Assembly (NCBI GenBank): GCA_000165345.1
Contig: CM000436.1
Coordinates: 416,001-480,000 of the forward strand
Reading direction: 5' to 3'
DNA length: 64,000 nt
Part shown: positions 5,601 to 37,285 of the stretch, piece after piece
How the letters are laid out: each line of letters starts with the position of its first letter
Position numbering within the stretch: position 1 is the stretch's first letter
The notes under the pieces: generated by a model
What the model was told of the DNA's origin: nothing
The model's database searches: none
The model's input: the letters and a program-made list of their open reading frames with translations, nothing else
Made by a program: the position numbers and the translations under genes

Positions 5601-6294
5601 CATTTCAGAATTAGAAACGAAATTGAATGAAAGTCAAAATGACAACAGGGTTTCAGAGCTAGAAGAGAGACTGAAAGAAATTGAGATCCAGAATCAAGAC
5701 AATTCAAACAAACTCAAAGAATCTGAGGAAGAGATTCTGAGAGGCAAAATGTCCATTAGTGAGCTTGAGGCTCGTCTTGAATCTGAAACAGGTAGAAACA
5801 AGTCTCTAAATGATGAAGTTGAAAGCTTACAGACTTCAAATGGAACTTATTTGGCTAGAATCGAGGAACTGGAGAGAAGGCTTGAAAGCTCTGAGCAATA
5901 CAAAGACTACATGTGTAAACTTGAACAGAGAACATTAGAACTCGAAAGCTCCTTAGAAGTAAAGTGTAAGGAATATGACTCATTAGAAGAGCAACATAAC
6001 AAGTTGATAAATGAAAACAAAGAACTCGAAAGATTAAATAGTCATGAAAATAATCATCAAATGAAACTTGAGAACGAAAAACTTAAAGAAACTAATGAAG
6101 CAGTCTATATCAAACTGGAAGCTTTCTCCAGAGATATTGACATGCTTAATAATCAACTTGAGTGGGTCAGAAGATATTCCCCACAAGTATATGAAGCAAT
6201 GCTCGAAAATACCTATCAATATTCTGGCCCATCCTTTGATAGTAATCCCAACAACCCCGGTGCTGAACACGAAATTTCCGATATTGCTCTGTAG
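2677..6294 (+). CDS. Large coiled-coil protein (1205 aa): proline- and S/T-rich N-terminal half, about 600 aa of E/K/L-rich heptad coiled coil at the C-terminus
   Basis: ORF track. PPPPPKRP motif near the N-terminus. C-terminal half is dominated by ELE / KLE / EEL repeats typical of myosin-tail or golgin-like coiled coils. No catalytic motif seen. Confidence 0.6.
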   Translation: MLKKIFGKKNEEGEDGVKPVKANLGEENKFYYNKELKSWVVRGEEHLVEQKQNLPPPPPKRPTTTDSGTRTESMASFSSGSQSTGIRKNLYTSTPGLNIMKNSKEQIGGIIPAIGFNSSNANATLFGPVGAPNNNNAIDNLDNQSGNLEPGKYDPKDLNEKQGIQEQIQVRSDSKEARRTSIQGKELEGEHLELSPSNFEGYSAEISGLGRHLREDQNISVPSSSYTNFTNQSSANTISITNKVLPPIPSLPNAAISNRDLTYGVSQRRASLQDSPLSFISTPNVIQNPKDTLGEKMEEASTSQNQYIHQEISGKQVCQEFDYNNIGISIQGLNEQQENMMESMRNQVEESKMNSTISNSESDQTEILYTQNDMRQRQRIRPLSQRSAASNGISGLTEKNEQIDVIKEKMDINWNKASSGGEVVNHRVSNTPKMESSILELISFFGFKYDEKSQKLLDNLEYNENMNISEQHYSAQKEEKRSLTQVCIDIKENKLKQMNFLVGKIFKSLQDSSSEYDSLLEMILNIGNITNKTFQEISGTINIVMSNSDEIEKELIKTRGLYLDLVKKYKAIYKQYETDMITLRSELENEKNMNITNSKEFEEKLKRVQDEFSSNEASNNELLHQYYSYIQDLQHRFEEMQENMQGKDLEIKMSEEEIQKLKSEIEELRIKLEEKKREFMLASEKFEEYERENQRLRESNEELISLSKLNEENSKQERIVLIEEHKQELELMEKFSREQDEHINQLQKSIGDLSEERSELLNQSEQLRNEIMIIKAQVENLVEEKSKIEEEVLTLSSQNQDKSSRIIELESMIGTESQRMETVSREMEELKGLNSQMEQKIEEIEKEKIQIESELRLEKESSVENFEKLSKELEEMTLKSQSLMEASKDEMESERRKLKEELESKTEEYNKHINWLESEISRVDEEWRTRQTHIEANYEQLYAQYMDLSSREGELGVLQERVNELESEKVNRNEYISELETKLNESQNDNRVSELEERLKEIEIQNQDNSNKLKESEEEILRGKMSISELEARLESETGRNKSLNDEVESLQTSNGTYLARIEELERRLESSEQYKDYMCKLEQRTLELESSLEVKCKEYDSLEEQHNKLINENKELERLNSHENNHQMKLENEKLKETNEAVYIKLEAFSRDIDMLNNQLEWVRRYSPQVYEAMLENTYQYSGPSFDSNPNNPGAEHEISDIAL

Positions 6295-6622
6295 CTCCGC
6301 GGGGCAACCCCACAATGCCCGCCATCGACTGCATGGATTTCCCGCCATGAAGCGGGTATTGATTTTAGGTTTTTTCTTTGGAGAGGGTTCCGAGCCTTAA
6401 GTACTGTCTAAAGTAATGGCCCCTCTTGGGCTAGAGGGGGGGAGCAGGAGGGAAAAGCTGTGAGAAAAAGGAAAGAGGAGGAGAGGATAAGAAAGAACTA
6501 AAAACGGCTAGTAAAAAGAGTAACAAGACTGTGTGAAAGAAGCCTCAAGTGTGAGGAAGAGGTAAGACTTTTGGAATTGGAAGAGACTAGAAGAGTCTAA
6601 CTTCAATAGAAAGACAGTTATA

Positions 6623-15307: not shown

Positions 15308-15392
15308 TTTGAATTTGAGTATAACTTTTCATTTATTTGTTTGATTTTATATTTAGTTTTTTTCTACTTTTTTGACTTAATTCATATTTATT

Positions 15393-15428
15393 CAAACTTT
15401 GGCGGGCCACAATTCCCGCCAAAGTTTG
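15393..15428. promoter_or_regulatory. Inverted repeat of E2F-like sites CAAACTTTGGCGGG-(8 bp)-CCCGCCAAAGTTTG in the divergent cyclophilin / nucleoporin promoter
   Basis: Perfect 14-bp arms read directly. Core TTTGGCGGG / CCCGCCAAA matches the E2F consensus TTTSSCGC. Sits 85 bp upstream of cyclophilin and 50 bp upstream of the nucleoporin start. Confidence 0.6.
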
Positions 15429-15477
15429 AAATAAATTTTTGAGTAAAAAGTAGATTATATTGTATTATATAATATAG

Positions 15478-17190
15478 ATGAGTAATAGGAGACCATGTCA
15501 ATTCTATTTGAGAGGATCATGTAGATTTGGTGATAATTGTAGAGACTACCATCCAAATGGATCTATGTTTGATCAGGGTATCAATAGTAGAGGTGGTAAT
15601 GTATTGAGTGGTACTAATACAAGTGGGTTTGGAGTGGGAGGAGGTCAGTTTAATCCATTTTCTGGCTCTATTGGTAAGCCTTTAGGTGATATGAATAGTT
15701 CATTTACTTCAGGAGGAGGAACAGGTATGGGTCCATTTGGGAATTTTGGAGGTCCATTTGGAGGTGGTAGTTCAGGAGCAATAGGAGTAGGTAATGGTTC
15801 TTTTGGTGGTGGGATAACATCAAATCCATTTGGAGGTGGGAATACATCAACTACAGGATCCATTTTTGGATCAAGTCCATTTGGAAGTTCAGTTAGTGGA
15901 TCTGGTTCTTCAACAATATCTACTACAGGGCCTACAACAGGGTCTATTTTTGGGTCAAGTCCATTTGGAGGTTCAATTAGTGGGTCTGGCTCTACATCTG
16001 CAATTGGATCCAGTCCATTTGGATCTGCAGTTGGTGGATCAGGGTCAATATCTTCTTCTTCTTCTTCTTCTTCTTCTTCTTCTTCTTCTTCTTCTTCTAC
16101 AGGAAATGTTAAGCCATCAAAATCTGATAACCCAACATTACAGATTTTGGAACTCATTGGAGTAGTTGTTAATAGTGGAGTATGGCCATTTGGAAGGATA
16201 GGATTATTAAATCAGTCTCAAGATTCATCTAATTCTCAAGTATTTCCAAGTTTGGATTTAAGTATTGAAGAATATAGATGGAAGTTTTATCAGAGTGATC
16301 CAGGTAATTGGAATAATTTACATTTGGAAACTTTAAGATTACTAACACAACAATATAATTCGTTTATTGAGCAGGGAAAAATTCAATCAAAGCTTCCAGC
16401 TACACATCAACTATATAATTTAGACTTTAGTTTATATTCTAAGATTGGAAACTGGTATTTACCTAATTTAGGTAAAGACTATGTAAATAAGCCTAATAAT
16501 ACAAATACTGGTGTTACTACTACTACTATTAATACTAATACTAATACTAATAATACTACTAATACTATTGGATCTATAGCAAATCCTTTTGGAGGTACAA
16601 CATTAGGATTTGGCCAAGGAACAGTATTACAAAGTAATAATTCTAATACAAGTCCATTTGGAGTCTTTGGATCTTCTTCTGCTTCATCTTCTTCCATTAT
16701 GTCTAATAATGCTTTGAGTCCTTTTGGAGGAACAGGAGGTGGTAATGGTATTGGAAGTGGTATAGTTAACAATTCAGTATTTGGTATTACAAACCAATCA
16801 CAAACACAGTCACAACAACAACAACAACAAACATCACCTTTTTCTGGTGGTAATATTCAAACAAATATAAATCAACCACTTTCTGTTGAAAGTAGTAATA
16901 ATAACAATAATAACTTTGGTATTTTTGGATCACAAGGTACCGGTTCAAATATATCCAACAATTTTAATAATATTTTTGGAAATATAACAAATCAACAAAA
17001 TCAAACTTCAAAGTCTGCTGGAACTAATATAAAGTATTCCTATAATAACCCAGATGTGAATGATGATAATCATTCATTTAATTCTCAAAATTTACAAGAA
17101 TGGGAATTGAATGCATTTAAAAGTTCAACTTTTGAAGAAAACAAGATTCCTGAAAAGATACCTCCAAGATACCTTAGAATGTATAGTTGA
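15478..17190 (+). CDS. FG-repeat nucleoporin with N-terminal CCCH zinc finger (Nup42/NUPL2-hCG1-like)
   Basis: N-terminus RPCQFYLRGSCRFGDNCRDYHP (C-x8-C-x5-C-x3-H). Then many FG/PFG repeats (SSPFGS, SNPFGGG, NPFGGT, SPFGVFG, NNFGIFG) in an S/G/N/T/Q-rich low-complexity background. That architecture is characteristic of Nup42/NUPL2. Confidence 0.6.
   Translation: MSNRRPCQFYLRGSCRFGDNCRDYHPNGSMFDQGINSRGGNVLSGTNTSGFGVGGGQFNPFSGSIGKPLGDMNSSFTSGGGTGMGPFGNFGGPFGGGSSGAIGVGNGSFGGGITSNPFGGGNTSTTGSIFGSSPFGSSVSGSGSSTISTTGPTTGSIFGSSPFGGSISGSGSTSAIGSSPFGSAVGGSGSISSSSSSSSSSSSSSSSTGNVKPSKSDNPTLQILELIGVVVNSGVWPFGRIGLLNQSQDSSNSQVFPSLDLSIEEYRWKFYQSDPGNWNNLHLETLRLLTQQYNSFIEQGKIQSKLPATHQLYNLDFSLYSKIGNWYLPNLGKDYVNKPNNTNTGVTTTTINTNTNTNNTTNTIGSIANPFGGTTLGFGQGTVLQSNNSNTSPFGVFGSSSASSSSIMSNNALSPFGGTGGGNGIGSGIVNNSVFGITNQSQTQSQQQQQQTSPFSGGNIQTNINQPLSVESSNNNNNNFGIFGSQGTGSNISNNFNNIFGNITNQQNQTSKSAGTNIKYSYNNPDVNDDNHSFNSQNLQEWELNAFKSSTFEENKIPEKIPPRYLRMYS
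16051..16098 (+). repeat. (TCT)16 trinucleotide microsatellite encoding a poly-Ser run inside the nucleoporin CDS
   Basis: Direct reading: tcttcttct... repeated about 16 times. Confidence 0.9.
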
Positions 17191-17424
17191 ATGGAATACC
17201 AAATATAAACTAGCCATTATATATTTAAGTAACTTTATATTAGAAATATAATACTTATAATACAATTCTAAAAATAATAATTATAATAATAAGACTATTT
17301 ACTTGTATTTATCATAATCTTTAATCTCCAATGTCTAAATTTTTAAATGTTATATAAAACTAATATTATTCTATAACAATAATGTATAAAATTTCGAGTG
17401 AATTTATTTATATATAAAAAAAAG

Positions 17425-17498
17425 CGCCGCCACTGGGGATCGAACCCAGGACCACATGGTTAAGAGCCATGCGCTCTACCTAGCTGAGCTATAGCGGC
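17425..17498 (-). tRNA. tRNA-Lys (anticodon CUU)
   Basis: Reverse complement reads GCCGCTA-TA-GCTCAGCTAGGTAGAGC-G-CATGG-CTCTTAA-CCATG-TGGTC-CTGGG-TTCGATC-CCCAG-TGGCGGC-G. 7-bp acceptor stem, D arm, 5-bp anticodon stem with loop CTCTTAA (anticodon CTT), T arm with TTCGATC loop. No encoded CCA. Confidence 0.85.
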
Positions 17499-23745: not shown

Positions 23746-26115
23746 TTATACTAATGACTTTTGTTCTTTAGTATAAGATGCAGGAATCAAAATTAGAAAT
23801 GAAAAAGTGGAAAAAAGTAATAAACAAAGGAAAAGAGCACTCCATCCATAATATTCGCTAATATAGGCAGTAAGAGTGCCTTGAGTGACAGCACCAAATG
23901 CTCCCAACCCATTAACAATACCTGTTGCCATAGAATCAATAGATTTAGTTGTAATATTAGATTTATCAAAAACATCCTGAGCTGCAGTTGAACCCAAAAT
24001 ACTATCAGGGCCCGAAACGCAGAATCCCATAAAAGCAATACCAAATAAAATAAGTAAATTTAATCCTGTTTTTGTGATTATCATGAAATATGATATACTC
24101 AAGGAAACAAATATCGACATATAACATGCAACCAAAATTCTTTTTCCTCCAAAATATGTATCAGCTATTGCACCTGCAGAAATTGCACCTGCAATACCGC
24201 CAATATCAAATAGCATTGATGAGTATCCTGCAACTGAAGGACCATAATTTAATTCACGTATTAAATAATAAGGTAACCAAAATAGCATTGAATATCTAAT
24301 CAATTTTATGAAATAGTAACTTATTGCTATGTTTAATATATTTGGTATCTTTAATAATATTATTAATTTCTCTACAAAGCCTACATCGTCCATATTTTGA
24401 ATATCAAATGAAGAGTAGATATTATTTTCCACATTATTTTCTTTTAAATTTGGATTCTGTGTAAAATCTCCATTACTACCATTTGTTGTATCCTTATTGT
24501 TTAACTGCTTTCTATTCTTTTTTGTTGGAGAGAGCTCTGAAATATAACTTAAATGATCACTAAATTCTGATTTTTCTATGCTTAATGATGTACCAAAGCC
24601 ATCATTTATGAATTTATCTCCATCTTCCATATGTAAATCAGTCATAGAGTCGTTTTCCTTCTCTGAAAGACTTTTTTGCATTAATAATTGACTGCTACTA
24701 CCACTATTTGAACTTGAATTTGCAGACATATCTTGAATTTGATGGTTCTCAAATCCCAAATTGTCTGGTTCATTCAAATAAGCCTCTCCTTCTTCTTCTT
24801 CTTCTTCTCCATTTATCAAATGAGATGAAGAAGCCAGCAAAGGATTGCTCCTTGAATCTAATAAGTTGCTACTGTACTTGGTCATCCCATTTTCTATCTC
24901 TTCTTGATGCGTCCCTTCCGCAATACTTCCCAACTCCTCATAATCTTCTTCTTTTTCAACCCTATCTATTCTGGCAGGCTTTACTATACCAATAGCTTCT
25001 AGCTCCTCTTCTCTATTGAACTTTATCTCATTATTAACTTCTTTGTTGTTATTGGAGTCTTCCATCATTACTAAAACCATATTATTTTCGTTTAATTCCT
25101 TATTTCCTACATTATCGTAAATATATAAATTCTTTGGTTTCTTTAAATACTTTAATACTATGATTCCAAAAAGAAAAACAAAAATTGATGGAATATAAAA
25201 TACAGACCTCCATCCTAACTTTAAACAAATTGAAGCTGAAAATGCTGTGGAAGCCATTGCTCCAACTTGTTGGCTTGTTGTCCAAACACCTAAAATCCTT
25301 CCTCTTTCACTCACTCCAAAACAAGTTATTAAATATTTAACTAGCATTGGATATACGCCTGCATGGAATAAACCATTGAAAAACCAAGATAACAAAAGAG
25401 AAGTTGAGCTATAAGAAATCCCAAATATTAATGATGTAATAGCTGAACAAATAAATGATATGCATATGTACTCATTCACTTTAAAGTTTTCAAACATCGT
25501 CGGAATTATTAATTGGCCAAATGCGTAAGAACCCAAAAAAGTTGTATCTATCCATCCCAAAACAGATGTAGAAAGTGATAAATCTTCTTGTATTTGTAAC
25601 TTAACAACTGAAAATGGCTTTCTCGTTGAATACAAAACTAAATATGATAAATAAGCCAAAAAGAATTTGTTATACTCGTCTTTTGACATACTAGGGAGTA
25701 ACTTTTTCATCATTGTTAAATCCATTAACTTGCTAATGAACCATTCATACCTCAAATTTATCATTCTCTTTTTTGAACTTAAAATATTTTCGATATTAAC
25801 ATTTTCCAAATTAGACATTTTCTGGCACTCATCTCCTTGTCTTACTACTATTCCTGGCTTAATCACACCATTACTTCCATTTCCCATTAACATACATAAA
25901 TTATCTATACTATTGTAATTTCTACTTGACTTTGAGCTTCCATCACAAGAAGGAAACCCTGTCGAAGTTGAATACATTGAATCATCACAACTCTCATACT
26001 TTTCCAAATAGTTAGATCTGTCAAATAATCTCAGTTCATCATTAGCGCATAAATCGATCTCCTCCTCTTCGCAATAATTACTATTGATTGCATTATTTAG
26101 CTTTAGTTCCTCCAT
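23746..26115 (-). CDS. Major facilitator superfamily transporter, organophosphate:Pi antiporter (SLC37/GlpT/UhpC-like sugar-phosphate exchanger), with a large E-rich cytoplasmic loop insert
   Basis: 12 predicted TM helices split 6+6. N-terminal half LSYLVLYSTRKPFSVVK ... GWIDTTFLGSYAFGQLI resembles the SLC37/GlpT signature region. The central loop of about 250 aa is acidic and low-complexity. Confidence 0.7.
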   Translation of the reverse strand: MEELKLNNAINSNYCEEEEIDLCANDELRLFDRSNYLEKYESCDDSMYSTSTGFPSCDGSSKSSRNYNSIDNLCMLMGNGSNGVIKPGIVVRQGDECQKMSNLENVNIENILSSKKRMINLRYEWFISKLMDLTMMKKLLPSMSKDEYNKFFLAYLSYLVLYSTRKPFSVVKLQIQEDLSLSTSVLGWIDTTFLGSYAFGQLIIPTMFENFKVNEYICISFICSAITSLIFGISYSSTSLLLSWFFNGLFHAGVYPMLVKYLITCFGVSERGRILGVWTTSQQVGAMASTAFSASICLKLGWRSVFYIPSIFVFLFGIIVLKYLKKPKNLYIYDNVGNKELNENNMVLVMMEDSNNNKEVNNEIKFNREEELEAIGIVKPARIDRVEKEEDYEELGSIAEGTHQEEIENGMTKYSSNLLDSRSNPLLASSSHLINGEEEEEEGEAYLNEPDNLGFENHQIQDMSANSSSNSGSSSQLLMQKSLSEKENDSMTDLHMEDGDKFINDGFGTSLSIEKSEFSDHLSYISELSPTKKNRKQLNNKDTTNGSNGDFTQNPNLKENNVENNIYSSFDIQNMDDVGFVEKLIILLKIPNILNIAISYYFIKLIRYSMLFWLPYYLIRELNYGPSVAGYSSMLFDIGGIAGAISAGAIADTYFGGKRILVACYMSIFVSLSISYFMIITKTGLNLLILFGIAFMGFCVSGPDSILGSTAAQDVFDKSNITTKSIDSMATGIVNGLGAFGAVTQGTLTAYISEYYGWSALFLCLLLFSTFSFLILIPASYTKEQKSLV

Positions 26116-26631
26116 AAATTGATAAGGTATTAAACTTGGAAAATTATCAACACCTTAAAGATTAACTTTGACTTAATAATATTAACAAGAATTTTTTTCA
26201 TAGGCCAGTCCTAATTCGCCAATTTACATACTCTTTCTCGTTGCTTTATATTCAGAATGTATTATTCACAAAAATTCTGTGGTGCTTTCTTTTGCTTTTT
26301 AATCTTTCTTAATTTCCCCCCAATATCTATTTAGTAAAAAAAAAATTGAATTCCAAAAACTTACAAAATTTCAATCCCTTCAATTTCTCTTGATAATTAT
26401 TTGTAGCAAAATTATCTCAAATCAACCAATAACCAAGTCAAATAATGCTTAGCTTTATTCTCCTCCCTCCTTACACCTCAGTATTTGATATTTTATTCAA
26501 ATTATTTAAAAAAACTATATATAGGATTTTTAGTCTCCAAATCTCAATTCCATCAAAATTTATTGATTTATACTTTTTTTTATTACCTCTACTTTTTTAT
26601 ATTATTTTAATATGCTCACTCTGTGTGGAAC

Positions 26632-26651
26632 TTTCCCGCCTAGGCGGGAAA
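26632..26651. promoter_or_regulatory. Perfect 20-bp palindrome TTTCCCGCCTAGGCGGGAAA (back-to-back E2F-like half-sites)
   Basis: Direct reading; the reverse complement is identical. Located in the upstream region of the MFS transporter gene (minus strand), 13 bp past the stop of the 2120-aa gene. Confidence 0.6.
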
Positions 26652-26663
26652 CCGGGTATCAAT

Positions 26664-29600
26664 TTAATACATATTGTCCAATACACCTGAAGTATTTGAA
26701 TTAAAACCACAGAAATCACTAAAATTTGCTTCAAACACTCCATTAATTAATGTGCAACTTTCTTGAATAAATCCTCCAACGTCATCAATTAGAGCCCATT
26801 GTGGCTCACTTGAGCCTGCATCCTTAATTATCAATAGTTTAAATTTGTCTACAGCTTTTCTGGCAGATAGGAGCTCATTCCCTGAAATATTAAACTGCCA
26901 AATTGGTAGTTTAGTGGTTTTTACTTCTATTAAAGCTAGGACTTGTTGTTTGTAATTCCGGGAAACTGAAAATTCTTCTTCAGAAAAGTATTCTCTTAAT
27001 AGAATGAAGTCAAAAGGAAGAAAACTCTCATTAAGTGAATTTAACCAAATTAGTTTAATAGTTGTCGTATCTGACTCTTTAAAACACTTGATCTTGCATT
27101 TTATAAATAGGTCTCTTTGCTGATCCTGAAATATATTATTATCCTCAATTTTCATATCCTCAATTCCTGTCCAATCTTTCAAGTCTTCCATATCTATTAC
27201 TTCATTTTGAATATAATTATTTACAAACTTTCTAGATAAGTAGTCTTCAATTAAATTATGATCAATAGATTTCAAGGTCAGCTTACGTGAGATTGCATTT
27301 GGGATTATGGCTTCAAAAGAAACTTTCTCACCCCAAAACCCCACCATTTTCGTGATTTCTTCTATTGTAAGACTCTCATCTGTTGCATTTCCCAGAGAAA
27401 GAGGATTTTTCTTTATATATTCTTTGATTATTGAGTCCAAGTTACTCTCTATTACATCTGTATTTTTAGTCATTTCTTTGTAATCACCAGTATTATTATT
27501 TTTAACTTTAATATGTGGATCATTATTATCAGCTTTATTATAATCAACTCTTTTAATTGATAATTCACTTAATAAATCATTTTTTTCAACATGTAATGAT
27601 TTATTTTCAATATCTGTATCTTTTCTTAACAAACATCCGCTTCTTGAACACTTTTTAAGTAGTTCAAAACCTTCTTTAACTACATTATCCACTGTGAAAC
27701 GCTCATCTCTTTTACTACTTAGATCATCCAAAATTGGAACATGTTTTGAAAGTAGTAAAAGTCTTTGTGAGCTGGAAAGAATCAAGAGTTCGTACAAATC
27801 AATATTAATTATACTATTTAAACCTGTCAAACCTTTTAATGGATCCAATAGCAAAGTATACAAATCCTTAAGTTGGTTACTTTTATCCATACTTTTATTC
27901 ACAAGTAATATTGAAGCTGAATTCTTATTGGGAATCTGTCTAAATAATACACCAATCTTCCTTCTGCTCGTTTTTGGTAAATGTTTGTCATTAATATTAA
28001 GATCAAACTTAAGCTCAATATCGTCAACCTCAACTTCATAAGTATTTACAAATGAAATAAGCCAATTAGCTATTTGGTAAGCTATTTCTTCATTTGCATT
28101 AGAATATCTTTCAGAAACTGAAAGTGGCTCGAATTCATAAGAATTTGAAATTTGTTCAAGTATTTCACTTTCGGATACACAAAATTCACAGTCAGTAACT
28201 GAATGATTTGAATTCTTGCTCGTTAAAGATTGTTCACTATCAAAAGTTTTTTTTTCTTCTAATATTCTCATGATTGACAAATAAATATCAAGAGATTTGT
28301 GTTTAAATAAGAGTATCAAGATACCCCAAAATTCCAAAGTTAGCCATATTTTATTTTTTCCTTTATTTGCAAATTTTATATGACTTCTAATATTACGTCC
28401 ATAATTAACTTTATAAGTTACTTTGTAACATTCTGAGAGTGTTTTTACTTTTAAAATATCTTTATAAAAAAATTGAGAACTTGGGGACGATGAAATTGCC
28501 AATGGAATCTGAAAGCTATCACTTCTTAAGCTTCCAATAGGGAAATCTTCCACACAACATTGTTCACGCTTCAGAAATTTATAAATACCCTTAATTGGTA
28601 TCTTTGCGTTATCGAGAAACTCACTCCACCACGAATTCTTTTTAGATTGACTCATTTTCTGAAAAACTTTCAAAAATGTATTAATTGATACGTTAATGAA
28701 AGATTCAAATTTGATTTTTCCTTCTTTAGACTCATCTTTAAGTAAATTTGGGCATTCCCTTAGCCATAAATAAGCATAATGGTGATGTATTGGTTGTTCT
28801 GAAACTAAAGATAAAAAGAATGGTCTTAAATTACTAATTTTACTTTTATTAATAAACTTGCTGAGAACAATAAATGTTCCATGAAAGAAATCATATGGAT
28901 CTGACCAAACCATATTATTATAATCAATAGGTACCCAATTATACAAAGTACTCTTCATCAATGGAATATAAAGCAAACTTTCATTGTAAAATACCTTTTT
29001 AATGTTCATTGAAATATCAAAATCTGTCTGATGGCCTAAAATATGATAAATATCAGAAATCATTTCGATGTCCGAGGGGCGATGAAGGCTTCGGTTTAAT
29101 GAATTATCATCAAAATTTGACCATTCATCCATTAAAGAAGGCCACCAATCTGAAGCAAATAACTTTTCTTTAGTTATACCAAATCCAAAAATTGCCAATT
29201 CTATAATATGGTTTAAATCAGGGTCATATGAAGGCTTTAATTTGATCTGCCTACTTTTTTGAACCACTTCATTATCCCTAATATTCATTACCCTCTTATA
29301 ATCTCGCAAAATTCGAATTAAAGATATGGAAGAAATCTGAGTTGTGACGCCAACCTCTTCCAAAGTTTCTGATATTAGTTTTGATTCATTACCAATATCT
29401 TCCTCTGTTCTATTTAATGTATAATGAGCAGAACAAGGTTCATTATTTTCACGTGATTTTGGAATCTTATATCCATTCCTTAAAGTTACTGGTAACAAAT
29501 TCAATACAATTTGAGAGATATGCTTAATAATTCCATCCAAGTTTTTATTAATTTTGGGAATAAACAGTTCACTCGGTCTGCTTAATAGCAAATCTTCACA

Positions 29601-32600
29601 AAAATCCACCGTATCACAATCTTGTATTTGTTCATTATTAATCTGGCTCATATAATAGCTAAAATAATTATCATTATATAATGAAATTGGTATCCATGGG
29701 TAACTTGATAATATTTCATTCAAAAAAGATGAGTTATATGAACGTCTTGAATATTCATTAGCTATTTGGATGATTGCTCCAGCTCTCATTACATAAATTA
29801 AATGTTTACAATAAAAACAATGCGATGAACTAATTGGATAAATATTTCTATCAACCATCCAACTCAATGGAGATGCATCTGTTTTTGGAGGTAATCTATC
29901 AAAGTTACATCCTACATACCACTGTTCAAGAAGGTTAATAAATTTATTAGTGAATACCCTGAATGCCAAATCTTTATCATTCTCATTTAAATGATCCGAA
30001 TTTTGGACGATATAATCTGATGATATCTCCACAAAGTGAAACCTATCAGATACTTTTGGAAATACCCATTCAACCAATGGAGGCCATAAAGGAGGGACAA
30101 TCGTCAAACCTTTGTATTCAAATGATTTATCGGAATTATATATTGAAGTTTTGTCTTTAACATTTTTCCGATTGCTATTTGATGTTTTTAGTTGGTCAAA
30201 ATTTGAATATGACTTTGAACTAAACTTATTGGACCTTTCCCAGCTTGAATGAAGTAGAATTAAAGATGTCAATGACTTGCTTACCTGAGACATTCTTAAA
30301 GCTACAGAAGTAGGATACACCATAACCTCATTTTCTCTTGTTTCATTCTTGCATCTATTACACTTCAAACTAGATGTGATCATTCTAGAACACCTAGCCA
30401 GTTTGTTCTTGTTTAACAACTCTTCTTCATTTGCATAGCTTTTTGGTAGATCCTTATTGTAAAGTAAAGCCTTTAAAAATGAAGGAGAATAAGTCTGAAC
30501 TACTATTGGAAGCTTAATTAGAAAGCGATTATCATCCTCTACAATGCTTGCCTCCTCTATTGCCAAAGGAGTAATTTTGAGAAGTAGTTTCTGTATATCA
30601 CTATTAATTGCATTTTCCCATCCTTTTTCGAGTAATAAATCAACCTGTTCAGCAATTAATTTAAAAAAAATAGATGGAGTTATCTTCTCAATCTTAAAAT
30701 CTTGGTTAATCATGCTCTTTATTCTGTATGGAGCTATTTTATATACCCTATCACTAAAAAATTCAAATGGGCATACTTTTCCTATTATTTCGGAATACTT
30801 TTGCAAGCAATGTTCTTGAAAGTAACTATCAAACGATTCATCTGAAATGTAAACTTTCACAATACTCGATTTTTCTATAGAAACTCTCTTACCCTCCCTA
30901 GTAGGTATAATTGGCAAACCTGAAATTCCTTCAAATTCTTTCAAACTTTCCACATCTCCTTCTTTCTGAGGAAATAAATAGCTATATAATATTAATAATT
31001 CCTCATCAGAAATACTCTCCAAAAATTTCAAAGGTTTCAATTCTAAAAAAATCTTCAATATATCCAAATTCCTTACATTATATGATGATATTATTTGTGC
31101 TACCAAAACTTGCAACATTTGCAATGGCCTCGTGCAAAGAAAATGCATGCATGTGTGCCCGCCTATCAGTGAGGGGTGCAATACCGGTCTCATGTGGACA
31201 CTCAGCATGTAGAGAAAATTCCAATGTAAATTGCAAAAAATACAAAAACCTTCATGGAAAGTATTGTTTTTTATGCAAAGATCATTGAATTGAATATTCG
31301 TGGAAATTTTATCAAGAAAGCAAAATGAGCCATCAATGTTCATAAACACAGGCTTTTTGACTAACTCATCAATACAAATCGAAGATAATGTGCAATAGTT
31401 TTGGCATTGGTTCAGGTTGTCAAGTTTTGGCGGGAGCCAACTAAATTTAATAAATTCTGAAGTATTTAAAACGAATGGTTTTAAGTTGTAATCAAAGCTT
31501 GATTCCTGCATTGTTTGTAACGGCAAAGACTTTGAAGTGAGTAAATTACTCATAAAAAGAGAATATTTTTGGTTAATTAAGCAAGATTTTCTTGAGCATG
31601 ATAATTTTGGATTAATCATACTAGCAACAAATTGTGGGATTTGTTTCTTGAAAATAACATCAAGAATTGTAGAATTCCAGATATTGTCAGCCATGACATC
31701 CTCTCTATTTGCTGTTAAAATCAAATCTTGGATATTAACATGAAATGGAAGATAGATTCTATGGTTCAAAGGGAACGTACAAAACAACTTTCCTGTAACC
31801 CTTTTATGTTTTCCAAAAGTTGATGAACCAAACGAGAATGAAGATGAGTTTATTATCCTTTCACCTTTATCTATTTCAAGTCTCAAATTTGAATGGAACA
31901 AAGGAAGAGCAATAGACCATACTGTTGAAGATCTTGTAGCTCTATCTCTGAGAGTGGAGCTCTCAAGCTTTTGATCCTCTGAAATTGGTATTTCCCAGTC
32001 CACTATAAGGTATTTAGAAGAAATTAAACTCTCTCTTAATAGTTTTCCTTTATTCAAATCTAAATCGTCATCATCAAATTGGGCTATCTCAATTTTTGTA
32101 AATCTGAAACTTTTTATTGAAGAAAGACTATCATCTTTGAATTCATCTAGGTTGAAAGTTTCACCTAGACTTTGAGAAATATCAGGAACTGAAATCAAGT
32201 CATTTAAAGTTAATCTCCTTCTTAAAAGTGGATAAATTGTATTCTTTTCAAAGGAACAAAAATCCGAGTCTTTTCTGGGCTCAACATCTACCACTATTGA
32301 TTTAATATTTCTCAAAAAGAGAAGAATATCATGTACGAAAGTGTTACGAATTGCAGATAAAATTGATGAGAATTTCTGTTTCATGTTCTTCTCAAATGGA
32401 AGATAGTGCAATGTTCCTAAGTTGCTTGAACTTTGGACAAATTTAGGCCCAAATTCAGATCTTATATTATCAAACCTCCAAGGAGTCCCATATAAACTAA
32501 TATTTGAATGAATTGTTTTTACTACTTCTGGGAAATCTGACTCTTCTATCCATTTTGGTACAATATAACTCAATTCAATTTCTTCATCAGGTTTACTTGA

Positions 32601-33026
32601 AAACTTTATAGAGTATCCACCACTAAATATACAAGGATTATCAGTTATTTTAAATATTGACCTATATCCAATACCTTTTTCTCCTGTAAAATATCTTGAT
32701 TCTGAATTCTTTTTAGACGAATTTCCAATATCGCATACAGACTCGATATTTTCACGTGTCATCCCTTTTTCATTTATATGGAATACCAAACAATCCCATC
32801 TTAACAATATGTAAACTTGAGGGATACCCTCACCTATTTCATTAAAATTAAAGTTAGAGTCATCTGCATTCTGAAGAAGCTCCAATAATACACGTCCAAA
32901 AGATGAATAAAGTTCATTTGATAATATTCCTATTGACCTGTCTTGCCTGTCTCTTTGAGATTTATTTGAAACGAATAAGCTCTCTCTTATCTCTTGAATG
33001 TGCTTCTTTGTTTGTTCATTTTGCAT
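26664..33026 (-). CDS. Very large protein (2120 aa) with N-terminal sacsin/NOV-like GHKL (HSP90-like) ATPase domain
   Basis: N-terminal motifs RVLLELLQNADDS (N-box, cf. sacsin ELIQNADDA) and GEKGIGYRSIFKITDNP (G-box, GxGxxS). The remainder has no recognised domains. Confidence 0.55.
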   Translation of the reverse strand: MQNEQTKKHIQEIRESLFVSNKSQRDRQDRSIGILSNELYSSFGRVLLELLQNADDSNFNFNEIGEGIPQVYILLRWDCLVFHINEKGMTRENIESVCDIGNSSKKNSESRYFTGEKGIGYRSIFKITDNPCIFSGGYSIKFSSKPDEEIELSYIVPKWIEESDFPEVVKTIHSNISLYGTPWRFDNIRSEFGPKFVQSSSNLGTLHYLPFEKNMKQKFSSILSAIRNTFVHDILLFLRNIKSIVVDVEPRKDSDFCSFEKNTIYPLLRRRLTLNDLISVPDISQSLGETFNLDEFKDDSLSSIKSFRFTKIEIAQFDDDDLDLNKGKLLRESLISSKYLIVDWEIPISEDQKLESSTLRDRATRSSTVWSIALPLFHSNLRLEIDKGERIINSSSFSFGSSTFGKHKRVTGKLFCTFPLNHRIYLPFHVNIQDLILTANREDVMADNIWNSTILDVIFKKQIPQFVASMINPKLSCSRKSCLINQKYSLFMSNLLTSKSLPLQTMQESSFDYNLKPFVLNTSEFIKFSWLPPKLDNLNQCQNYCTLSSICIDELVKKPVFMNIDGSFCFLDKISTNIQFNDLCIKNNTFHEGFCIFCNLHWNFLYMLSVHMRPVLHPSLIGGHTCMHFLCTRPLQMLQVLVAQIISSYNVRNLDILKIFLELKPLKFLESISDEELLILYSYLFPQKEGDVESLKEFEGISGLPIIPTREGKRVSIEKSSIVKVYISDESFDSYFQEHCLQKYSEIIGKVCPFEFFSDRVYKIAPYRIKSMINQDFKIEKITPSIFFKLIAEQVDLLLEKGWENAINSDIQKLLLKITPLAIEEASIVEDDNRFLIKLPIVVQTYSPSFLKALLYNKDLPKSYANEEELLNKNKLARCSRMITSSLKCNRCKNETRENEVMVYPTSVALRMSQVSKSLTSLILLHSSWERSNKFSSKSYSNFDQLKTSNSNRKNVKDKTSIYNSDKSFEYKGLTIVPPLWPPLVEWVFPKVSDRFHFVEISSDYIVQNSDHLNENDKDLAFRVFTNKFINLLEQWYVGCNFDRLPPKTDASPLSWMVDRNIYPISSSHCFYCKHLIYVMRAGAIIQIANEYSRRSYNSSFLNEILSSYPWIPISLYNDNYFSYYMSQINNEQIQDCDTVDFCEDLLLSRPSELFIPKINKNLDGIIKHISQIVLNLLPVTLRNGYKIPKSRENNEPCSAHYTLNRTEEDIGNESKLISETLEEVGVTTQISSISLIRILRDYKRVMNIRDNEVVQKSRQIKLKPSYDPDLNHIIELAIFGFGITKEKLFASDWWPSLMDEWSNFDDNSLNRSLHRPSDIEMISDIYHILGHQTDFDISMNIKKVFYNESLLYIPLMKSTLYNWVPIDYNNMVWSDPYDFFHGTFIVLSKFINKSKISNLRPFFLSLVSEQPIHHHYAYLWLRECPNLLKDESKEGKIKFESFINVSINTFLKVFQKMSQSKKNSWWSEFLDNAKIPIKGIYKFLKREQCCVEDFPIGSLRSDSFQIPLAISSSPSSQFFYKDILKVKTLSECYKVTYKVNYGRNIRSHIKFANKGKNKIWLTLEFWGILILLFKHKSLDIYLSIMRILEEKKTFDSEQSLTSKNSNHSVTDCEFCVSESEILEQISNSYEFEPLSVSERYSNANEEIAYQIANWLISFVNTYEVEVDDIELKFDLNINDKHLPKTSRRKIGVLFRQIPNKNSASILLVNKSMDKSNQLKDLYTLLLDPLKGLTGLNSIINIDLYELLILSSSQRLLLLSKHVPILDDLSSKRDERFTVDNVVKEGFELLKKCSRSGCLLRKDTDIENKSLHVEKNDLLSELSIKRVDYNKADNNDPHIKVKNNNTGDYKEMTKNTDVIESNLDSIIKEYIKKNPLSLGNATDESLTIEEITKMVGFWGEKVSFEAIIPNAISRKLTLKSIDHNLIEDYLSRKFVNNYIQNEVIDMEDLKDWTGIEDMKIEDNNIFQDQQRDLFIKCKIKCFKESDTTTIKLIWLNSLNESFLPFDFILLREYFSEEEFSVSRNYKQQVLALIEVKTTKLPIWQFNISGNELLSARKAVDKFKLLIIKDAGSSEPQWALIDDVGGFIQESCTLINGVFEANFSDFCGFNSNTSGVLDNMY

Positions 33027-33554: not shown

Positions 33555-33576
33555 AATTTTGCATGCATGCAAAATT
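33555..33576. promoter_or_regulatory. Perfect 22-bp palindrome AATTTTGCATGCATGCAAAATT (TGCATGCA AP2-like core) upstream of the 2120-aa GHKL-protein gene
   Basis: Direct reading; the reverse complement is identical. TGCATGCA is a known over-represented apicomplexan upstream motif (ApiAP2-type). Confidence 0.55.
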
Positions 33577-33663: not shown

Positions 33664-35091
33664 TTATATTGAAAGACTTGTTTTAAAAGATATTGTTTTG
33701 AGTTCATATGAATTTATATCTAAAAGCACCAAAGTAGGGTTATTAGAGAACTCAGGAATGGTGAAGCATAATGGTCCATTATTAGGGAATCTATATGACC
33801 CAAATTCTGATTGATTTCCTGCAAAAATGACTTGTGGAAAAGATTCATCGGTATAATCCAAAGCAAAAGGATCACGATCGAAGAATGGGTAAGTAGGTAT
33901 TACATCAGGGCATGTAGGAGCAATATTTCTTGATTCAACACAAAATTTGAGAGCATCAATAGGCTTCGAATATGAAGAAAATAGAGAAATCTTTGAAATA
34001 CATTGGCCAGAAACACCAGTTACTCTTACATTGTTAATAGAAAACAAGCAAGGATTTGTGAAAGAATTAAACGACTGATAGTTTCTTGAATTTTTGAATA
34101 TATAAGGCTGGAAAGGAGGTTGAGGAAGAGAAATTGGAACAGGATCATCCTCTCCAGGCATGATCGCAAGAGATATAGTGGAAGCCAGCTGAGAAATAAA
34201 GGAATCAACCACACCAAGCCTGCTTGAAAGCAACTCATTATTTACAACTAACTTGGTTCCAGTACCAGTAACAGTCTCTTTTGCAGTATCTAAAAGTCTA
34301 ATAATGTTTCCTGCTATAATTAAGTAAGCAATTTGTGATGATAAAAGTTTGTGTTCGCTACTATATGAAGAAACTCCCATAATGAAATCACGAAATAATT
34401 GTAAAGATAATGAATTCTCTATTTCTGATCCTATATTTAAACCGGAAACAAAAGCCAAATATACTGGCTGAGAAGACTTCCCTAATGTATATTCTTTTCC
34501 AATAATCTCTTCAGGAGGAGAGGCAAAAGTCAAATCCGAGACTAGAAAGTTGCCCCCTGAATTTTGTACTCCCCTTACTGCTAGTATGGTACCAGAAATC
34601 AAATTATTCATTGAAAATACATCTTCTTTTAGAGTCAATGGAATTCTTGATGAACTATCCTCTATATAAACCTTGTCATCATTACTAGTATAATTGCTTA
34701 ATTGACTGTTCTTTGTAGCCTCTTCGATATCTTGAAGATACTCATCCAAAATTGTTGGTCTATTTTTCATTTCCTTTGTCACAAACCCCATGATAATGCA
34801 TTCAGACTCAATTTTCATATCTTTAAGCTCATTCAAAATAGGTATCGATCTATCCTCAGGGTTACCCTGACTTGCAATCTTCTCAACTTTTTCCTGTTCT
34901 ACTGAAAGATGGCACTTCCACTTTCTCTGTACTGCTTTCAATAAAAATGGACGCAAACTCATGAACCTTGAAAAACATAAGTGGCAGTACTGGTGTGGAA
35001 AGCTGTAATCTTTTACTCTAAATCGTTCACATTCATTCTTAATATCTACTTCCGGCCGTTTCAGGCTCTTAACATCTTTTTCTAATTTCAT
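33664..35091 (-). CDS. POLD2: DNA polymerase delta small (B) subunit, POLD2/Pol31
   Basis: Phosphoesterase-domain blocks IMPGEDDP..SLPQPPF ... TNPCLFSINNVRVTGVSGQCISKI ... APTCPDVIPTYPFFDRDPFAL ... VIFAGNQSEFGS align with POLD2 (MPGEFDP..LPQQPLH ... [20 protein letters not shown] ... DPFIF ... FCGNTPSFGS). N-terminal OB region QYCHLCFSRFMSLRPFL matches QYAHIYATRLIQMRPFL. Confidence 0.85.
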   Translation of the reverse strand: MKLEKDVKSLKRPEVDIKNECERFRVKDYSFPHQYCHLCFSRFMSLRPFLLKAVQRKWKCHLSVEQEKVEKIASQGNPEDRSIPILNELKDMKIESECIIMGFVTKEMKNRPTILDEYLQDIEEATKNSQLSNYTSNDDKVYIEDSSSRIPLTLKEDVFSMNNLISGTILAVRGVQNSGGNFLVSDLTFASPPEEIIGKEYTLGKSSQPVYLAFVSGLNIGSEIENSLSLQLFRDFIMGVSSYSSEHKLLSSQIAYLIIAGNIIRLLDTAKETVTGTGTKLVVNNELLSSRLGVVDSFISQLASTISLAIMPGEDDPVPISLPQPPFQPYIFKNSRNYQSFNSFTNPCLFSINNVRVTGVSGQCISKISLFSSYSKPIDALKFCVESRNIAPTCPDVIPTYPFFDRDPFALDYTDESFPQVIFAGNQSEFGSYRFPNNGPLCFTIPEFSNNPTLVLLDINSYELKTISFKTSLSI

Positions 35092-35233
35092 TGGGAAATA
35101 CCTTGATCCTCTCTAATGCTTATAAATGAAACACACAACACCTAAGTTCTTTGCTTAATCTATTTTCCTTCTTATTTTATCGATCCCCCTTTCCCACTTT
35201 TAAAATATTCTCGACTCCCTATTAAAAAACAAT

Positions 35234-35296
35234 GGGCGGGAGCTCACTCACATTCATTACTATTACTAGTCTAAGCATGTTGGCGCCAAAACATGT
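35234..35296. promoter_or_regulatory. E2F-like cluster in the POLD2 upstream region: GGGCGGGAG and the palindromic CATGTTGGCGCCAAAACATG
   Basis: Direct reading. TTGGCGCCAA core (35280-35289) is a perfect palindrome. 140-200 bp upstream of the POLD2 start (minus strand). Confidence 0.55.
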
Positions 35297-35570
35297 ATTT
35301 CATAAACTAATAATAAATTCTTTTTGGCAACAAAAAGAATTTGTTAAGATGACATACAGATAGTTTATAAGAATTTTAACTAACTTTTATTTCTTTTCTT
35401 TCAAAATCTAATTATTTCTTTCACTATTTAACATTTAATTATTCATCTCTTGAAGTCAGAGACAAAATAACCCAATTTTTCCTCTTTTTAACAACATTCC
35501 ATTTGTCACCCTTAATTAGCACCATTTCTTTTTCTTGTTTTGTTCTAATACTCACTTTTCTTCTTTTGTG

Positions 35571-35589
35571 GGAAACTTCCCGCCAAAAC
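35571..35589. promoter_or_regulatory. E2F-like site GGAAACTTCCCGCCAAAAC between divergent POLD2 and Sld5
   Basis: Direct reading. 124 bp upstream of the predicted Sld5 ATG. Confidence 0.5.
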
Positions 35590-35712
35590 TATTTTTATTG
35601 AAATTAATCATTACTATTAAGAGTTTGATTCAAGTAGTAAAAGTAGGAAAAGTGAAAGAAAACTAAAGTAATAGGTTTGAACTTTGATAAGACTTTATAT
35701 AGACTGAAACTA

Positions 35713-35752
35713 ATGAATCATAATGAGGAGGACCGTCTTCCACTGGAAAAAG
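35713..35752 (+). CDS. SLD5: GINS subunit Sld5, predicted exon 1 (MNHNEEDRLPLEK + 1 nt), donor AAAAAG|GTAGGTTA
   Basis: ATG followed by GTAGGT donor at 35753. Needed to supply a start codon for the open exon 2. Phase 1 matches the exon-2 acceptor. Confidence 0.4.
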
Positions 35753-35931
35753 GTAGGTTAAAGGTGTAATTGACATACTAGTTTCTAAACACATGTGAGG
35801 TAACGTGTGTGTTGGCTCTAGAATTGCCAAGAGCTAATACACTTGGTACTTTAAAAAAGGCTTTGGACTGGGATATAATCTAATAATTAACTTATTTTGT
35901 TTACCTTACATTCTTTGAATCTCTAATTTAG

Positions 35932-36065
35932 AAAATTCGGGGATTAATTTAATTGATGGGAATGACTTGGAATATATTGATAATATATACAGCTCAAAGA
36001 ACTTTGGTTTATCAGATGACTCCCATATTAAGAATCTGAGAAATTCTCAAGAGACTTTGCTTATG
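35932..36065 (+). CDS. SLD5: GINS subunit Sld5, predicted exon 2 (...NLRNSQETLLM), acceptor tttag|, donor ATG|GTAAGT
   Basis: 44 stop-free codons in an AT-rich genome, bounded by a canonical acceptor (35930-31 AG) and GTAAGT donor (36066). Runs into exon 3 in frame to give ETLLM-SWINELVSPELL, matching the Sld5 N-terminal block (W.NE..aPELL). Confidence 0.6.
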
Positions 36066-36139
36066 GTAAGTTTTATTGTCCAATAATTATATCAACAAAA
36101 ATCCTAAACCACTCATTAACTTAACTTTAAATTAACAAG

Positions 36140-36826
36140 TCATGGATCAATGAGTTAGTATCTCCTGAACTATTAACATACTGTGAGTCTTCAATACAAA
36201 CTCTCTCTCACTCTATTTTCAAAGAAAAAGAAAAACAAAGAATTATGGAAGTTGATGGAGGAATTCTAGGTATCGAAGATAAAATCGAACGTGATCTAAT
36301 TAACCTCCATATTAACAGATCAACTAATATGCTCAAAATGTATCTGAAACAGAGAATAATGAAGATTTCAGAATTCCCTGATTTCTCTATTGCTAATTCA
36401 AGAACTAATAACGATCTAAACTCTGAATCAAATATCAGTCCTGAAGAAGCTATTTTCGCTTTAAAGCTTTCCAAGCTTCAATGGAAGTATTTAGATGAAA
36501 CCATCTCCAAGATGAAAAATACCCTAGCAACAGACTCCTCCGTCCCAATTCCAGCCCCATCCTTACATAGATCCGTAAGATTCAAATGCATTGACTCCAT
36601 TGGAAGAGTTCAATTACAATCTCTTGTAACCCCTGAAAATGTTTCTTTTACTCAATTTGATACTCAAAACCACTTTTCTCAAAATGATTCAGAAGGAGTC
36701 ATCAATATTGAAAAGGGAAAGATATATACATGTAAATATGAAGATGTAAGAACTCTTTTGGACCAAAATACCATCCAACTTTGGCCTTGGCCTCCCATTA
36801 CTAGCAACAAAAACTACTCTTATTAG
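36140..36826 (+). CDS. SLD5: GINS subunit Sld5, exon 3 (contains the listed ORF 36245-36826)
   Basis: SWINELVSPELLTY ... RSTNMLKMYLKQRIMKISEFPDF match Sld5 conserved blocks (WMNEKFAPELLE ... RYVLSSYLRCRLMKIEKFFP). Acceptor AG at 36138-39, in frame with the tracked ORF (35 codons upstream of its Met). Confidence 0.75.
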   Translation, partial: SWINELVSPELLTYCESSIQTLSHSIFKEKEKQRIMEVDGGILGIEDKIERDLINLHINRSTNMLKMYLKQRIMKISEFPDFSIANSRTNNDLNSESNISPEEAIFALKLSKLQWKYLDETISKMKNTLATDSSVPIPAPSLHRSVRFKCIDSIGRVQLQSLVTPENVSFTQFDTQNHFSQNDSEGVINIEKGKIYTCKYEDVRTLLDQNTIQLWPWPPITSNKNYSY

Positions 36827-37285
36827 CTATTTATTTAAAAAAAAAAAGAAAAGAAAAAAAAAAACCTCATTCTCTACCCTCCAAAAAAGCTCAAAAAAGA
36901 GCTCATATAGTCTCATTAACCATTAATATTTACCAATTCATGCTCTTCAAGCTTCCCGCCAATTATTCTATGTGTTATTACTACCTCTGTTTTGCATGTG
37001 TTTTGCCATGAGGGGTTTCGGCGCGGCCCCACAGCGCCAAACTTTGAGTAAATGCAATATGTGCCTAAAGTGTGTTGATAAAAGCCGAAATTTGAAATTA
37101 TATGTTAAACAAAGAGAATTCGTAAGTCCGAATTTATTTGCATACTCAATTATATACATATTATACGTTCTTATATTATATAATAAAAAATAAGCTTAGG
37201 ATCCTTGATATTATAGGAGAAAAAAATAGCTATATAAGGGTTAGTAAGGTCACGAGAGATCATTGATTTTGAATATTGGGAGAAA

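Follow-up and report, generated by a model that had tools for sequence, protein, structure and literature searches.

The window analysed here, a stretch of DNA of 64,000 nt, is part of chromosome 8 of Cryptosporidium parvum, three neighbouring proteins of the locus being identical to C. parvum Iowa II EAK89371-EAK89373. The original prediction spoke of poly-A sites and so implied a eukaryote, which is correct as the host is Cryptosporidium. The feature under study is a palindrome in the 548 nt spacer that separates the gene for a sacsin-like protein, cgd8_1610, from the transporter gene cgd8_1600 in a tail-to-head arrangement (Table 1). The cgd8_1600 protein is 98% identical to a C. hominis protein annotated as 'sugar phosphate permease'. 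The two genes fall into different expression clusters, cgd8_1600 into cluster 38 and cgd8_1610 into cluster 7 (Oberstaller 2013), and the transporter therefore needs its own control. An antisense ORF of 81 aa that runs across the palindrome (26445-26690, plus strand) was considered and rejected as non-coding because C. hominis carries a 2 nt indel within it. The sole RNA gene that ARAGORN and Rfam find in the window is a tRNA-Lys(CTT) at 17424-17498 on the minus strand.

Table 1. Position of the palindrome, its sub-elements and the adjoining genes in the window.
Feature	Position	Strand	Remarks
cgd8_1600, 789-aa MFS sugar-phosphate permease	23746..26115	-	Pfam MFS_1; presumed target gene
ATTAAA	26606..26611	-	52 nt past the cgd8_1610 stop; kept in most species
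GAGTGAGCA, 9-mer	26613..26621	-	10 nt downstream (gene sense) of the palindrome end; invariant in 10 species (alignment columns G60-A68)
GTTCCACACA, spacer	26622..26631	-	kept in at least 90% of species; similar to the flank of another E2F-like site, at 35584-35567 (GGCGGGAAGTTTCCCACA)
Palindrome TTTCCCGCCTAGGCGGGAAA	26632..26651	.	two inverted E2F-type sites; 8-bp cores flank the 4-bp centre CTAG
E2F site 2, TTTCCCGC on plus, GCGGGAAA in gene sense	26632..26639	+	arm toward the transporter; TTTSSCGC match
E2F site 1, TTTCCCGC	26644..26651	- (gene sense)	arm adjoining the cgd8_1610 stop codon; TTTSSCGC match
ATTGATACCCGG, 12 nt from stop to palindrome	26652..26663	-	CC of TACC (26656-26655) invariant in 10/10 species
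cgd8_1610, 2120 aa, sacsin-like / NO VEIN-like	26664..33026	-	SACS and NOV_C domains; 3' end adjoins the palindrome
DNA polymerase delta subunit 2 (pol delta2), cgd8_1620	33664-35091	-	gene next after cgd8_1610

Read on the plus strand, TTTCCCGCCTAGGCGGGAAA is a 20 nt palindrome without a single imperfect position, exactly as had been claimed. The TAA stop codon of the 2120 aa ORF occupies 26666-26664 and 12 nt (26652-26663) intervene, so that the palindrome starts on the 13th base past the stop, in agreement with the original prediction. Its bases lie 517-536 nt upstream of the transporter ATG, the value of 517 nt referring to the nearest base and matching the predicted distance of about 520 bp. 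With up to three mismatches allowed, the sequence has no other match in the window (none is expected from 100 shuffles). The length of the palindrome is by itself unremarkable, because perfect palindromes of any composition with arms of at least 10 nt arise 0.215 times per mononucleotide shuffle of the window in such AT-rich DNA (about 30% G+C), and AT-rich examples with arms of this length are also present in the window. Its composition sets it apart: 200 shuffles yielded no palindrome with arms of at least 10 nt and at least 50% G+C, and when arms of at least 8 nt are admitted at the same G+C content the shuffle mean is 0.095 and TTTCCCGCCTAGGCGGGAAA is the sole such palindrome in the window.

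Both arms match the E2F/DP consensus TTTSSCGC exactly, as TTTCCCGC is read on each strand. The 9-mer of each arm, TTTCCCGCC, is the same as an E2F/DP site quoted in PMC3734150, and the arms also fit the core of the E2F-like motif 4 of C. parvum, TTTGGCGGGAAV. The most over-represented upstream motifs of C. parvum are the E2F-like motifs 3 (DTTGSCGCCH) and 4, with the core GGCGGG, and motif 4 is over-represented upstream of genes in 47 expression clusters (Oberstaller 2013, PMC3734150). For Arabidopsis, TTTCCCGCC and TTTGGCGGG have been established as E2F/DP sites (Ramirez-Parra et al. 2003, as cited in PMC3734150). In sporozoites, E2F1-type motifs followed by E2F6-type motifs are the leading motifs of ATAC-seq peaks and polycistron spacers (Xiao et al. 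2025, bioRxiv 10.1101/2025.01.17.633476). A palindromic E2F motif has been described upstream of many C. parvum lncRNAs, with two copies in 22.6% of those that have E2F motifs only (Li et al. 2021). According to the literature, E2F/DP is the one classical transcription factor family that Cryptosporidium has kept and other apicomplexans have lost, and C. parvum has two E2F and two DP genes, none of them within the window. A fungal-type Zn2Cys6 site (CCG-N6-CGG) was considered for the palindrome and dropped since the organism is Cryptosporidium.

E2F-like sites are abundant around the palindrome. TTTSSCGC occurs 13 times in the window against an expectation of 0.93, an enrichment that was computed on these 64 kb, the genome-wide enrichment being taken from the literature; 10 of the 13 matches lie outside ORFs of at least 200 aa, that is in 28% of the window. 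GGCGGGAA is found 29 times at up to one mismatch (10.3 expected). Most of the other E2F-like sites are located 87-362 nt from an ATG, one of them 192 nt upstream of pol delta2. A second inverted E2F-like pair forms a 40 nt inverted repeat at 15391-15430, TTCAAACTTTGGCGGG-CCACAATT-CCCGCCAAAGTTTGAA, with perfect arms of 16 nt and an 8 nt loop (CCACAATT), located 48 nt ahead of the start codon of a CCCH zinc-finger ORF (15478-17190, plus strand). Because of this second pair, E2F sites placed head to head can be regarded as a recurring design in the genome.

An imperfect inverted E2F-like pair, TTTCCCGCCATGAAGCGGGTATT, is seen at 6329-6365 (site at 6338), 44 nt past the stop of the ORF at 2677-6294 (plus strand) and 468 nt before the UCH/MATH ORF that begins at 6806. 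The flank of this pair on the minus strand (AATACCCGC...GGCGGGAAATCCA) bears a loose likeness to the block around the palindrome, and a separate G+C-rich hairpin, CCCCTCTTGGGCTAGAGGGG, follows the pair at 6420-6439.

The orthologous locus was taken from 12 other Cryptosporidium genomes via the transporter protein, and the synteny, with the sacsin-like gene followed by the transporter gene on the same strand, is kept in all of them. Conservation in sister species had been suggested as a check, and the palindrome is found at the orthologous position in 10 Cryptosporidium species. The perfect 20-mer is present in C. parvum, C. hominis, C. tyzzeri, C. meleagridis and two Logan assemblies (L012 and L011). 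In C. felis the centre of the palindrome is altered to CTGG, and Chipmunk genotype I carries one substitution (position 9). The variants in C. ubiquitum, GGCGGTAAA, and C. canis, GGCGGGGAA, both have a degenerate E2F site 2. C. ryanae, C. xiaoi and C. muris lack the palindrome, which counts against the E2F reading.

In the ten-species alignment TTTCCCGC of site 1 (columns T30-C37), GGCGG of site 2 and GAGTGAGCA are invariant. The stronger constraint falls on site 1, the arm adjoining the stop codon. Protein-DNA recognition predicts that the base sequence of the core is conserved, and such conservation is found across the ten species. The transporter proteins of C. felis, C. canis and L011 share 59-72% identity with that of C. 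parvum. When the 548 nt spacer is compared with C. canis by blastn the sole significant HSP covers nt 1-104 (E 1e-20), and with C. felis nt 9-96 (E 1.5e-8), and both span the palindrome. Since the palindrome has been kept out to C. felis and C. canis while the remaining spacer cannot be aligned, it is under purifying selection. In most of the orthologous loci of about 8 kb the matches to TTTSSCGC are confined to the palindrome, and its distance from the transporter ATG stays between 366 and 552 nt in all species that have it, those with a diverged sequence included. The suggestion that the palindrome could be a promoter element for the transporter is thus supported in substance, as the arms fit the E2F/DP consensus, the dominant promoter motif of the genus, and are part of the sole deeply conserved portion of the spacer; the E2F identity of the arms had been missed.

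The relation of the palindrome to the stop codon is not fixed, because in C. felis (locus L007, 2495-2634) the called stop of the sacsin-like gene lies 120 nt upstream of the palindrome, and in L011 (SRR31860986, 2400-2510) a 3 nt difference deletes this stop so that the called ORF crosses the palindrome and continues for another 80 nt. The DNA between stop and palindrome in C. felis looks like decayed C-terminal coding sequence.

C. ryanae (locus L008, about 2440-2500) and C. xiaoi (locus L009, about 2430-2500) have another block in common just past the stop, TTTTCCCACATAAAAGAT...CCGCAAA. The TTCCCACA within it is similar to sequence flanking the E2F-like site at 35584 in C. parvum, and this may point to turnover of the regulatory element.

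The conserved sequence extends beyond the two E2F cores and comprises a block of about 50 nt in the order RTACC-N3-4, palindrome, GTTCCACACA and GAGTGAGCA. Apart from the invariant CC, the remainder of ATTGATACCCGG is at least 90% conserved, C. felis included. The 9-mer GAGTGAGCA could be a site for a partner or co-factor, a TSS-proximal element, a splice donor (GTGAG) or a 3' UTR signal. The ATTAAA that follows is a possible variant poly(A) signal of cgd8_1610, and if it is used the palindrome is located within the cgd8_1610 3' UTR. A search of metagenomes with the pattern of invariant columns of the block returned no matches. Paralogous copies of the block were sought in the window and rejected, as the likenesses at 6329-6365 and 35567-35584 are weak and non-significant (E 6.9).

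The palindrome starts 13 nt past the stop and is very probably transcribed for that reason as part of the cgd8_1610 3' UTR, which raises the question of a function in RNA. As RNA the 20-mer folds into an 8 bp stem with a CUAG loop (-12.5 kcal/mol, z = -3.97), and it is conceivable, if unlikely, that this hairpin together with the downstream GAGUGAGCA constitutes an RNA-level element in the cgd8_1610 3' UTR or in the spacer of a dicistron. Such an element would act as a signal, for protein binding or for processing, in 3' end formation, in stability or in cutting into monocistrons, and the likeness to E2F sites would be coincidental or secondary. The extent of conservation agrees with this, as about 100 nt in C. 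canis and about 90 nt in C. felis, from the stop to just beyond ATTAAA, are conserved, the size of a short 3' UTR. The block, which reaches past the E2F cores with RTACC upstream and GAGTGAGCA downstream, approximately fits the putative 3' UTR of cgd8_1610, and part of the conservation may therefore be RNA-level. Polycistronic transcripts have furthermore been reported for C. parvum, and the UTRs of its neighbouring genes overlap extensively (Xiao et al. 2025).

Over eight species six of the eight base pairs of the stem are invariant, one is a U-G wobble in C. canis and one is a C-U mismatch in the middle of the stem in C. ubiquitum. The wobble is due to an A-to-G change, the sole informative substitution in the arms, which retains a G-U pair on the sense RNA and on that strand only, and is thus weakly compatible with an RNA stem; the C-U mismatch speaks against one. 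Compensatory changes on both sides of the stem were not found in the eight species and none are visible in the ten-species alignment, and the arms are conserved base by base as far as C. felis. As a test of covariation this is uninformative, as invariant pairs would be compatible with an RNA role as well as with its absence. Rfam was scanned by E-value over 26000-27000 and at the gathering threshold over the window; no family match was detected at the palindrome, and the hits returned were the tRNA-Lys and two sub-threshold chance hits only. By a rough estimate, an arbitrary conserved stem would match TTTSSCGC on both arms at about 1e-3 to 1e-4, and the variable position of the stop codon likewise disfavours a 3' UTR signal. 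A DNA-level E2F site is accordingly ranked first as the probable explanation and an RNA-level role second, because of the lack of covariation, the match to the dominant motif on both strands, the stop codon that is not fixed, the missing T-tract and the missing Rfam match.

The original prediction had also proposed a hairpin terminator for the upstream gene, and this part is not supported. A G+C-rich stem immediately past a stop codon is what the palindrome has in common with a bacterial Rho-independent terminator; the genome, however, is eukaryotic, no T/U tract comes after the stem in either direction (sense strand GTTCCACA, opposite strand CCGGGTAT), a terminator scan recovered no terminator-like sites, and the stem shows no covariation. 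The palindrome is neither a member nor a functional analogue of this class. A palindrome that arose by chance and has no function is excluded by the composition statistics and the conservation in ten species, and an intrinsic-type terminator or a chance palindrome would together be very improbable explanations. An architectural parallel on the RNA side is the 3' end of metazoan histone mRNAs, which carries a stem-loop (GGYYYUUYUNARRRCC) and a downstream purine-rich element. Both arrangements have a short conserved stem-loop some tens of nucleotides past the stop with a purine-rich element about 10-20 nt further on, and in both it is the sequence rather than the pairing that is conserved. The gene at hand is not a histone gene, however, and the stem and loop sequences are unrelated, so that the likeness is architectural only.

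The palindrome is thus probably a paired inverted E2F/DP cis-regulatory site for cgd8_1600 that is located inside the cgd8_1610 3' UTR, a reading that draws on motif content and conservation. The element would act at the DNA level and consist of TTTCCCGC, the 4 bp centre and GCGGGAAA in the spacer between the two genes, the two sites being spaced 12 bp from centre to centre. Winged-helix dimers of E2F/DP would bind to one or both of the sites, maintain accessible chromatin and activate or tune the transcription of the downstream sugar-phosphate permease gene; in view of the symmetry of the site, it could also give rise to an antisense or internal transcript. The palindromic shape would arise because two copies of a pseudo-symmetric site are placed head to head, and the RNA hairpin in the cgd8_1610 3' UTR would therefore be a by-product.

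The chief weakness of the promoter interpretation is the distance to the ATG, as the palindrome is situated at the far edge of the spacer, 517-536 nt away, as opposed to 87-362 nt for most other sites. The mean 5' UTR of C. parvum measures 137 +/- 116 nt according to oligo-capped cDNAs, and introns in the 5' UTR are found in only 3% of genes (PMC2722674). Set against this mean leader, the distance of 517 nt means that the palindrome is a distal element, some 380 nt ahead of a typical TSS, unless the leader is as long as about 480 nt. The same geometry, just past the stop of the upstream gene and about 520 nt before the next ATG, recurs at 33555-33576 and counters this objection. This perfect 22 nt palindrome, AATTTTGCATGCATGCAAAATT, is built on the ApiAP2 motif 'AP2_1' (TGCATGCA); it follows the pol delta2 stop by 88 nt and precedes the cgd8_1610 ATG by 529 nt. 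The imperfect pair at 6338 is likewise cited against the objection, since 44 nt separate it from the preceding stop and 468 nt from the following ATG. The AP2_1 type is also represented by a smaller palindrome, GTGCATGCATGCAC, at 60762-60775.

In another reading the E2F pair, GTTCCACACA and GAGTGAGCA would form a single composite module, a promoter or a boundary, at which transcription starts or a 5' splice donor (GTGAGC) is located. Such a module would give cgd8_1600 a long or spliced leader or start an unannotated non-coding transcript. We regard this as rather doubtful, and as somewhat less likely than the RNA-level role. The invariance of GAGTGAGCA in ten species and the range of 366-552 nt within which the distance between palindrome and ATG stays across species argue for it, as do two sites upstream of pol delta2. 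The first, at 35584 on the minus strand, 486 nt upstream of pol delta2, reads TTTTGGCGGGAAG (within 35584-35551); it shares the flank GGCGGGAAGTTTCCCACA, so that GGCGGGAA-GTTYCCMACA is common to this site and the palindrome, and then continues with AAGTGAGTA. The second, at 35287 on the minus strand, reads TTTTGGCGCCAA (within 35291-35241) and is followed by GAGTGAGCT. In three of the five intergenic occurrences of RAGTGAG in the window, at the palindrome and at these two sites, the motif lies 10-45 nt downstream of an E2F-like site. This association is suggestive, but it is post hoc, rests on three cases and was seen in 64 kb; the combination may represent a composite promoter grammar or a splice-donor-like element. 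Against the module stand the non-significant similarity of the block to the rest of the window, the rarity of 5' UTR introns and the short average leader already cited, and the want of a convincing conserved acceptor (YAG) beside the transporter ATG for an intron that begins at GTGAGC.

No ORF in the 2.2 kb stretch at 35092-37285 reaches 200 aa (the longest, at 36245-36826 on the plus strand, has 193 aa), and several E2F-like sites are present there (35577, 36953, 37034). The stretch may contain a small or spliced gene or give rise to non-coding transcripts.

A further possibility, which we consider improbable and more so than the composite module, is that the module of about 50 nt formed by RTACC, the palindrome, GTTCCACACA and GAGTGAGCA is a bifunctional gene-boundary element of a compact genome. 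On DNA, the E2F-bound site would stop or insulate the upstream transcription unit of 6.4 kb and launch the downstream unit. On RNA, the hairpin and the downstream element in the read-through spacer between cgd8_1610 and cgd8_1600 would set the cut point or the start of an internal monocistron.

By sequence criteria the palindrome belongs to the known family of E2F/DP sites in Cryptosporidium. It shares with the E2F-like motifs described earlier (PMC3734150; Xiao 2025) the organism, the GGCGGG / CCCGCC core with a run of T or A, the location in upstream non-coding DNA and the strong over-representation, and these motifs, too, are frequently palindromic or twofold. It differs in that two full sites are fused into a perfect 20 bp palindrome, and in its position: it is not 90-360 nt from the ATG but at the far end of the spacer, where it probably falls within the 3' UTR of the preceding gene. 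This instance, with its perfect symmetry and its conservation in ten species, is not described in the Cryptosporidium papers cited here. The plant E2F sites TTTCCCGCC and TTTGGCGGG (as cited in PMC3734150) contain a 9-mer identical to each arm; they stem from another kingdom, however, and typically occur singly in S-phase gene promoters. The pRB-family partners of E2F are largely missing in Cryptosporidium (PMC3734150).

Inverted pairs of E2F sites have precedents outside of the parasite. The adenovirus E2 early promoter and the mammalian E2F1 and DHFR promoters contain closely spaced inverted E2F sites near the TSS that are bound by E2F/DP. As would be the case for the palindrome, the symmetry of these pairs derives from protein binding and not from nucleic acid folding; the spacing and the core sequences differ, and so does the proximity of the viral and mammalian pairs to the TSS.

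The palindrome leaves current views unchanged, as it adds one more case of the most abundant motif known from the parasite. Gene regulation in Cryptosporidium is poorly understood, and to our knowledge almost no cis-element of the genus has been validated experimentally. A perfectly symmetrical double site that is conserved from C. parvum to C. felis would offer a clean and compact test substrate for the binding of CpE2F/DP and for promoter dissection. It also illustrates how promoter and 3' UTR can overlap in a genome of 9 Mb. We know of no core-promoter or boundary grammar for Cryptosporidium, and one would emerge if the arrangement of an E2F-like site followed by RAGTGAG proved to be common genome-wide.

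Closer to the transporter gene, at 26195-26215 and about 85-95 nt upstream of its ATG, lies a block, GGAYTGNNYTATG(R), that includes an upstream ATG. The block can be traced from C. parvum as far as C. canis and L011 (loci L001-L006, L011 and L012, about 2905-2925) and in C. parvum it starts a uORF of 23 codons. It may represent a conserved uORF or a TSS-proximal element of the transporter mRNA.
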